Source of the DNA: Escherichia phage RB69
Reading direction: 5' to 3' (one strand)
Sequence record: NC_004928.1
DNA length: 64,000 nucleotides
Part shown: positions 10,081 through 10,419 of the stretch, one piece after another
Layout of the letters: each line of letters opens with the position of its first letter
Position numbering within the stretch: the first letter of the stretch is position 1
Notes under the pieces: generated by a model
What the model saw: the letters and a program-made list of their open reading frames with translations, nothing else
Databases searched by the model: none
Told to the model about the DNA's origin: nothing
Translations under genes and position numbers: made by a program

Positions 10081-10113
10081 AAAAAGCCCCAACCTTTCGG
10101 AAGGGGCTAAGCC
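10081..10113 (-). terminator. hairpin (GNRA loop) plus T-tract terminator
   Basis: Minus strand AGCCCCTTCCGAAAGGTTGGGGCT followed by TTTTT. Confidence 0.65.
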
Positions 10114-10419
10114 TCGCGGCAACCTTGTCGGGGTTCCACCTGCTAAGGCAAGTGTTTGTACGAAACGCCGGGATTCGAACCCGGTTATTAAGCAGTTGAC
10201 GCTACTCAATATTTTTAAAAGGCCATATCTCGACCATATCCGAACGTTCCGTCAAAAACGCTACTCGACTTACGGCAAAGATATTTCCTCGAATCGATAA
10301 TTCGGTGCGCCGTTTCTGCTGTGATGTAAGGGGATATTAACGAATCATAAAGATTTATTAAGACCAGTCCTTACTCAGGGAACATCAGTCCGACGACTTA
10401 CCGGTAGCGACCCGGCTTC
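10114..10419 (-). ncRNA. candidate stable small RNA(s) with tRNA-like T-arm, downstream of the tRNA genes
   Basis: About 300 nt with no credible ORF; contains CCGGGTTCGAATCCCGG (T-stem/loop-like); bounded by tRNA cluster and terminator; position analogous to T4 RNA C/RNA D. Confidence 0.35.

Follow-up and report, generated by a model that had tools for sequence, protein, structure and literature searches.

Downstream of the transfer RNA (tRNA) genes of Escherichia phage RB69 lies a stretch of non-coding sequence, and the question that it raises is what, if anything, it encodes. The window analyzed here is the whole 64,000-nt stretch of DNA from sequence record NC_004928.1, and the region in question covers positions 10081–10419. 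A first-pass annotation, made from the sequence without database searches, had described about 300 nt of structured non-coding sequence and had suggested a tRNA remnant or a small RNA, in a position matching that of the stable RNAs C and D of phage T4. Known from T4 since the 1970s, these RNAs were among the earliest phage non-coding RNAs to be discovered. The reading that we consider likely is that the region forms the 3' end of a minus-strand tRNA transcription unit, consisting of orthologs of the T4 genes rnaD and rnaC, a conserved trailer and a terminator, and that rnaC is a tRNA mimic. The two RNAs are an already known element of T4-like genomes, and a locus like this one is usual in such phages; the present analysis contributes a structure of rnaC derived by comparison and the hypothesis of an interaction between two of its loops.

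The T4 record NC_000866 includes rnaD (species 2 RNA, 119 nt; T4s002) and rnaC (species 1 RNA, 139 nt; T4s001), both annotated as misc_RNA and situated directly after tRNA-Arg. Pairwise alignment with these genes placed the rnaC ortholog at 10297–10159 on the minus strand (139 nt), with 136 of the 139 positions identical over the full length and the ends exactly aligned. The rnaD ortholog was placed at 10423–10304 on the same strand (120 nt, the ends set by alignment to T4 rnaD), with approximately 87% identity over the full length; the differences are concentrated in the middle of the gene and the 5' and 3' thirds are invariant. The two are separated by a 6-nt spacer, GAAUUA (10303–10298, minus strand), also delimited by alignment to T4. 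Homology to T4 runs on past rnaC through the trailer (10158–10109) and the terminator (10108–10081), as far as position 10078. The suggested correspondence with RNAs C and D was thus borne out by alignment to annotated genes, and with it the reading as small RNA. The start of rnaD lies four bases outside the interval that had been delimited, and overlaps the stop codon of an upstream open reading frame (ORF).

The order of rnaD, 6-nt spacer, rnaC, trailer and terminator is the same in T4, and so are the lengths and the strand relative to the tRNAs. T4 differs from the window in three respects: rnaD follows directly after tRNA-Arg, whereas both the window and phage T2L have a 114-aa ORF in between; the middle hairpin of rnaD is different; and rnaD ends in ACCA in T4 and in ACCG in the window. 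In the T2L record AJ880101 the layout is as in the window, with a tRNA cluster ending in tRNA-Arg, the ORF, rnaD over the stop codon of the ORF, and rnaC. The synteny of the tRNAs, the stable RNAs and the terminator agrees with T4, T2L and PhAPEC2, and rnaC and rnaD are annotated also in several records of RB phages. The placement of the region downstream of the tRNAs holds on the minus strand, which the tRNAs, both RNAs and the terminator share, and only in that orientation; furthermore, the 114-aa ORF intervenes. When positions 10040–10460 were compared with 50,697 phage records by BLAST, 804 records were matched, all of them T4-like, and the best matches were Mosigvirus phages (e.g., PhAPEC2 at 97.5%).

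The fold obtained for rnaC starts from an acceptor stem of 7 bp (10296–10290 with 10167–10161), which in T4-type phages includes two central U·U mismatches. Inside it stand P2, 3 bp formed by AGG with CCU (10289–10287 with 10222–10220), and a long irregular arm of four short helices (10286–10223), which occupies the D-loop position and is capped by the apical loop UUGACG (loop 1, 10255–10250). An A-rich linker (10219–10212) of 7–10 nt across the homologs leads to a 10-bp arm in the anticodon-arm position (10211–10186) with the loop CGUCAA (loop 2, 10201–10196), followed by the T arm CCGGG-UUCGAAU-CCCGG (10184–10168) and, after the acceptor stem, by the discriminator U (10160), all on the minus strand. 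The T arm corresponds to the perfect T-arm-like sequence CCGGGTTCGAATCCCGG recognized in the first-pass annotation, which was found once in the window, at 10168–10184 of the minus strand, the chance expectation being none. The long arm contains a conserved 4-nt purine-rich bulge below the apical helix, and an invariant GG stands just before the 3' strand of P2.

The comparison of rnaC was based on 25 distinct homologs from approximately ten genera, and a smaller alignment of 13 sequences was used for RNAalifold and for building a covariance model. In the RNAalifold consensus, 24 of the 42 pairs had compensatory changes. When the 25 sequences were fitted to the covariance model, the fold together with the helix proposed below between loops 1 and 2 had standard pairs in 93.1% of the cells, compared to 79.9% in shuffled alignments and 37–47% when the partners were slid by 1–3 columns. 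Changes on both sides were present in 30 of the 49 proposed pairs, a number reached by none of 500 shuffles. The covariance model did not include the loop-loop helix, so the counts for this helix are not biased by the fitting. Examples of the changes include the acceptor U·U mismatches, replaced by U-A in Pectobacterium phage PM2, the third acceptor pair, which changes from A-U to G-C, and the T arm, in which CCGGG/CCCGG is replaced by CCUGG/CCAGG in other genera. The segment lengths vary little across the genera, the insert of the long arm comprising 64–66 nt, the hairpin of the 10-bp arm 25–26 nt and the whole RNA 135–139 nt, and they stay nearly fixed despite a long-arm sequence that is unrecognizably different between the T4/Karamvirus type and the types of Proteus, Edwardsiella and Marfavirus. 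Structure prediction, one of the checks proposed at the outset, showed that rnaC folds better than shuffled sequence (z = -3.6), as does rnaD (z = -2.1). As a comparative model, the secondary structure of rnaC is established by covariation. No account of this fold or of the loop-loop idea was found in the accessible literature, outside of which the primary papers of the 1970s and 1980s fall, and parts of the fold may predate this analysis.

BLAST matches to rnaC were found in 744 phage records, and 679 of these had an identity of at least 95%. The gene is extremely conserved within Tequatrovirus and Mosigvirus, and diverged copies are present in Karamvirus, Kanagawavirus, Gelderlandvirus, Mosugukvirus, Moonvirus and Marfavirus, as well as in Edwardsiella phage PEi20, Citrobacter phage Ursula and Erwinia phage COW86c. 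It is retained in genera with differing sets of tRNAs. The copy in the window can be regarded as intact, because two of the three positions in which it differs from T4 lie in internal loops and the third replaces a U-A pair by U-G. A variant deviating in the T loop occurs in Enterobacter phage IME523 (L010, 1618–1624), where UGCAUGC replaces UUCGAAU while all the stems are kept; this natural variant could show whether the T loop matters.

Also the repeated GCTACTC motif, pointed out earlier as a feature of the region, was present, at 10201–10207 and 10260–10266 of the plus strand. On the RNA strand it reads GAGUAGC (10207–10201 and 10266–10260); both copies lie within rnaC and extend to the 9-mer GAGUAGCGU. 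The heptamer is not enriched in the window as a whole, with five occurrences found against 3.6 expected. The second copy in rnaC is not kept in other genera, and the repeat is therefore probably incidental.

The resemblance of rnaC to a tRNA concerns the arrangement of the acceptor stem, the T arm and the discriminator. As in a canonical tRNA (RF00005), and especially in those of class II, which carry a long extra arm, a 7-bp acceptor is stacked on a 5-bp T arm with a UUCGAAU loop (fitting the tRNA pattern UUCRANY), both supported by covariation, the T arm abutting the 3' strand of the acceptor; rnaC also shares the four-way junction, the place in tRNA arrays and, in some genera, a discriminator followed by CCA. 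The bases after the discriminator U are CCA in six of the 25 homologs (Marfavirus and PM2) and ACA in the other 19, including the window. Unlike a canonical tRNA, rnaC has no D stem-loop of normal size, no 7-nt anticodon loop and no nucleotides corresponding to positions 8–9, and it has instead the A-rich linker. That a complete tRNA could not be folded here had been noticed before, and likewise ARAGORN made no tRNA call, and RF00005 gave no match, in 10081–10423. The scan of Rfam 15 proposed as a check, run at both gathering and permissive thresholds, returned no family for rnaC or rnaD; the only match at the locus was to tRNA-Sec, at 16.6 bits (E = 3.6) against a threshold of 47 bits. With the covariance model of rnaC, all the homologs scored 93–170 bits and the copy in the window 162.6 bits, whereas real tRNAs, which align with the model end to end, reached only 15–27 bits. 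On these grounds rnaC is a conserved tRNA mimic unable to decode.

ARAGORN did call a tRNA on the 3' 95 nt of rnaC in two relatives, tRNA-Met in PG7 and tRNA-Phe in Pet-CM3-4. The calls were rejected, as the supposed anticodons differ between close relatives and the covarying 5' strand of the acceptor is ignored. In GenBank, the tRNA-Met of Enterobacter phage PG7 (CG98_gt009; L008, 1546–1640, cf. L009, 1546–1641) is the 3' two-thirds of rnaC and a mis-annotation, and many other records lay coding sequences for hypothetical proteins over rnaC or rnaD. The locus should be annotated as rnaD, rnaC and terminator in place of the hypothetical proteins or stray tRNA that many records carry, and the fold supported by covariation offers specific mutants as well as a covariance model for annotating the family.

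Where rnaC occurs within a tRNA array, it is placed like an ordinary tRNA gene. The gene directly before it is tRNA-Trp in phages of Karamvirus and Gelderlandvirus as well as in Citrobacter phage Ursula and Erwinia phage COW86c, and in NM4.3 (Moonvirus) and phage EI (Marfavirus) a tRNA with the anticodon CAU, called tRNA-Met by ARAGORN. The upstream spacer is approximately 4–5 nt, and the gene immediately after rnaC is often tRNA-Gly. From the tRNA-like acceptor and T arm, the U-ACA or U-CCA end and the array position with short spacers we infer processing of the tRNA type: the 5' end would be cut by RNase P, the 3' end would be formed by exonuclease trimming with or without addition of CCA, and the tRNA machinery would in this way excise and stabilize rnaC.

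Other RNAs are known in which an acceptor/T-arm module recruits tRNA processing enzymes and makes the RNA more stable, the remainder of the molecule having another task, namely the tRNA-like domain of transfer-messenger RNA (tmRNA), YrlA, the 3' tRNA-like structures (TLS) of plant viruses, and mascRNA and the tRNA scaffold. Unlike these, rnaC lacks both an mRNA-like part and a Ro-binding helix and does not lie at a genome end. ARAGORN made no tmRNA call at the locus, and Rfam gave no tmRNA, YrlA or TLS match in the region; the only match to YrlA (RF02553; 17.8 bits, E = 1.1) falls on the two real tRNAs, at 10810–10930, and not on rnaC or rnaD.

The two hexaloops of rnaC, UUGACG and CGUCAA, are exact Watson–Crick complements at six of six positions, a match that chance would give any two hexaloops with a probability of about 1 in 4,096. 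Apart from two genera, neither loop varies, even over stems that share no sequence. One of the two exceptions is formed by the Marfavirus-type copies, in which loop 1 is UUGGCG and loop 2 CGCCAA, i.e., a paired change from A-U to G-C, present in all ten copies (five isolates and five metagenomic contigs). The predicted duplex energies of the natural loop pairs are -5.5 and -7.6 kcal/mol, compared to -0.4 and -4.9 kcal/mol for the mixed pairs. The complementarity and the joint change suggest a kissing helix between the loops. As the covariation represents a single evolutionary event, this evidence is suggestive and not conclusive. Pattern scans of IMG/VR and metagenomes, filtered with the covariance model, detected no further independent change of the loops: the copies recovered were of the Marfavirus type or already known, and the remaining pattern matches were chance tRNA-like sequences.

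Kissing complexes with fully paired short loops include HIV-1 TAR/TAR*, ColE1 RNA I/RNA II and the dimers of tRNAs with complementary anticodons. The proposed interaction resembles these in that it involves two hairpin loops, of 6 nt, with full Watson–Crick complementarity, and differs from them in that the loops of rnaC belong to one molecule and are predicted to join two arms of its tRNA-like junction in a ring. In this model UUGACG and CGUCAA would pair as a 6-bp kissing helix, by which the ring would be closed and made rigid. Approximately 21 bp would be stacked on one another, comprising the 10-bp arm, the loop helix of 6 bp and the apical helix of 5 bp, and the remaining part of the long arm (approximately 16 bp and three internal loops) would return to the junction with a sharp turn at the 4-nt bulge. 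Such a geometry would explain the fixed lengths of the arms.

As to function, Northern blotting has shown RNAC in T4, and RNAC and RNAD have been classed as late RNAs of yet unknown functions (PMC9697503); their biological roles have been called unknown also elsewhere (PMC3014915, PMC12685909). The proposal made here is that rnaC, as a stable look-alike with the acceptor/T-arm face and outside decoding, might bind or divert a tRNA-directed host factor during infection, such as a processing or modifying enzyme or a tRNA-targeting defense nuclease. This is put forward as a tentative possibility, rather unlikely when taken by itself. The two observations behind a host-related role, the retention of rnaC despite differing tRNA sets and a mutation in rnaD of phage BW1 (PMC12685909; see below), are weak. 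If the idea of a mimic or decoy were true, it would tie RNAs C and D to the tRNA-centered defense conflicts between phages and bacteria. In its most specific form, which we regard as unlikely, rnaC would represent a distinct class of tRNA mimics, a natural tRNA scaffold in which an insertion arm in the D loop and an extended anticodon arm are locked by the 6-bp kissing helix, serving as a decoy or sponge for a host factor. This would explain its nearly unchanged retention in T4-like phages of enterobacteria and answer a question that has stood since the 1970s.

Several points weigh against the interpretation of rnaC as a processed and internally locked tRNA mimic. Whole-region deletions of the T4 tRNAs are viable on laboratory hosts, so any function would be conditional. 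The transcript evidence comes from T4, and the RB69 copies are known as sequence. The junction of rnaC is unlike that of a tRNA, with no linker between the acceptor and P2 and 7–10 nt between P2 and the 10-bp arm, and recognition by RNase P or the CCA-adding enzyme is putative. The T4-type copies have ACA in the position of CCA, and the GenBank annotation of T4 ends rnaC at ...GUA. With regard to the loops, PM2 keeps only four of the six pairs (core GACG with CGUC), and the concerted change is confined to one clade, Marfavirus. Moreover, each loop could instead bind an external partner, or the loops could mediate a dimer by reciprocal kissing.

External partners are central to the first alternative, according to which rnaC, rnaD or the terminator-bearing trailer would be trans-acting small RNAs (sRNAs) whose conserved loops and single strands pair with phage or host mRNAs, perhaps with Hfq. 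The hexaloops, the A-rich linker and the 45-nt 5' part of rnaD are indeed conserved beyond what the stems need, a U-tailed terminator closes the trailer, as is the case in many Hfq-dependent sRNAs, and a single-nucleotide polymorphism (SNP) in rnaD was taken as regulatory by the authors who reported it (PMC12685909). However, the loops of rnaC complement each other and change together. No antisense match of at least 14 nt was found elsewhere in the window, and matches of 12–13 nt occurred at approximately the chance rate; a BLAST search of rnaD against 5,426 Escherichia coli genomes, insensitive to short pairings, gave no match. In addition, according to a review of 2010, no trans-acting sRNA of T4 had by then been characterized (PMC3014915). 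We consider regulation by base pairing quite improbable.

Position in the transcript is the basis of the second alternative, in which rnaC and rnaD would be structured spacers acting in cis, guiding the order of RNase P and RNase E cleavages or protecting the 3' end, and persisting as stable by-products. It accords with the constant location of the RNAs in or beside tRNA clusters, with the tRNA-type ends of rnaC, and with the trailer and terminator at the 3' end of the unit. Yet rnaC is internal to the array in many genera and not 3'-terminal, rnaC and rnaD occur without each other, and a spacer would need neither invariant complementary loops nor fixed arm lengths nor an identity of 95–100% over hundreds of genomes. 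A purely structural role in cis is accordingly seen as highly doubtful.

The covariation contradicts the two remaining alternatives. A decaying tRNA gene with chance structure and without function, the remnant of the first-pass annotation, would account for a perfect T arm in a place where ARAGORN and Rfam find no tRNA, and for the 95-nt tRNA that ARAGORN calls on the 3' two-thirds of rnaC in two relatives with differing anticodons. Every helix of rnaC has compensatory changes, however, no drift by insertions and deletions is seen in the 135–139 nt across the genera, the folding is well beyond that of the shuffled controls, and a stable transcript is documented in T4 (PMC9697503). Since the T arm sits within an intact, strongly conserved and covarying tRNA-like RNA, the remnant idea was not sustained and is extremely improbable. 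That the region encodes a short peptide deserves practically no credence: the longest ORF in it, of 61 aa with a TTG start (10024–10209, minus strand), and other short ORFs exist, and hypothetical proteins are annotated here in many GenBank records, but the 61-aa ORF traverses T arm, trailer and terminator alike, the homologs differ by substitutions that are paired across stems and follow no codon pattern, and the annotated ORFs vary in frame and strand between records, all in line with the earlier statement that there is no convincing ORF.

Compared to rnaC, rnaD has a narrower distribution, with BLAST matches in 733 phage records of Tequatrovirus, Mosigvirus, Dhakavirus, Gaprivervirus and relatives. 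In two of these genera, Dhakavirus and Gaprivervirus, rnaD occurs without rnaC, and many genera have rnaC without detectable rnaD, which indicates that the two are independent modules. In an alignment of 12 sequences the first approximately 45 nt and the last 22 nt of rnaD were nearly invariant and the middle variable; in T2-type phages the middle is unrelated. The 5' hairpin CCGG-GUCGCUA-CCGG (10416–10400, minus strand) has a covarying closing pair. A long-range helix (10397–10391 with 10312–10305, minus strand) is invariant and encloses the variable apical hairpin, and RNAalifold of the same 12 sequences showed the pair U40-A110 replaced by A-U in Dhakavirus and Gaprivervirus. The 3' end is ...GGCGCACC; after ...GCGCACC only T4 continues with A. 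The RNA is not tRNA-like. As judged from the predicted fold, a long hairpin on an invariant base together with an invariant 5' hairpin, it probably serves to bind protein. A reading as hammerhead ribozyme, raised by a CUGAUG...GAAAC motif, was dropped, as the core A9 is U and Rfam gave no hammerhead match up to E 10.

The rnaD mutation mentioned above is one SNP, the only change common to three BW1 lines adapted to ECOR34, a semi-permissive E. coli, and its authors read it as regulatory (PMC12685909). It could also come from the ancestral stock, and its position on the fold could not be fixed, given the ambiguity of the coordinates and orientation in the paper.

The trailer following rnaC on the minus strand was delimited by comparison with T4, T2, PhiZZ6 and Dhakavirus, among which its 45–50 nt are nearly invariant. 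It consists of the hairpin CACUUGC-CUUA-GCAGGUG, the segment GGAACCCCGACAAGGUU and the small hairpin GCC-GCGA-GGC. In Dhakavirus, where rnaC is lacking, the trailer is found directly 3' of rnaD (L063; L064, 719–790), and the small hairpin covaries there from GCC/GGC to ACC/GGU. The trailer may be a processing signal, or it may together with the terminator form a third, unrecognized processed RNA of approximately 75 nt.

The GNRA-capped terminator described earlier was confirmed as a GAAA-capped hairpin, AGCCCC-UU-CC-GAAA-GG-UU-GGGGCU, with five U residues (10108–10081, minus strand). As the intrinsic terminator of the tRNA and stable RNA transcription unit it is supported by its presence in the minimum-free-energy fold, by the annotation of PhAPEC2 and by covariation of the stem, GCCCC/GGGGC becoming GGCCC/GGGCC in Dhakavirus. 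A simple terminator scanner made no call at 10108–10081, because the internal UU/UU loop interrupts the stem. Neither a sigma-70-like promoter locally on the minus strand nor the T4 late promoter TATAAATA on that strand within 3 kb upstream was found, and transcription presumably comes from upstream of the tRNAs. In PhAPEC2, ST2, phiC120 and others, an insert of approximately 550 bp with one ORF (PhAPEC2_134) lies between two copies of the terminator (L002, 2854–2884 and 3401–3432). The window is without this insert at 10081–10107; the insert has the appearance of a small cassette, mobile or recombined, with the terminator as its target.

The 114-aa ORF between tRNA-Arg and rnaD (10764–10423, minus strand, with the stop codon at 10422–10420) belongs to phrog_3355; it has no Pfam match and no assigned function, is named trna.2 in T2L and is absent from this position in T4. 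The gene 3' of the terminator (9428–9990, minus strand; phrog_2280), a homolog of PhAPEC2_133 and RB69ORF149c, is split into ORFs of 146 and 61 aa by a 1-nt frameshift near 9620 in comparison to the 187-aa protein of PhAPEC2; a pseudogene, a sequencing error and programmed frameshifting are all possible. The two tRNAs upstream lie at 10941–10868 and 10861–10783 on the minus strand (ARAGORN and Rfam). The former was called tRNA-Met (CAT) by ARAGORN, yet it is 96% identical to a T4 gene annotated as tRNA-Ile, and on the basis of this identity it is most likely a lysidine-dependent tRNA-Ile2 and not a tRNA-Met.

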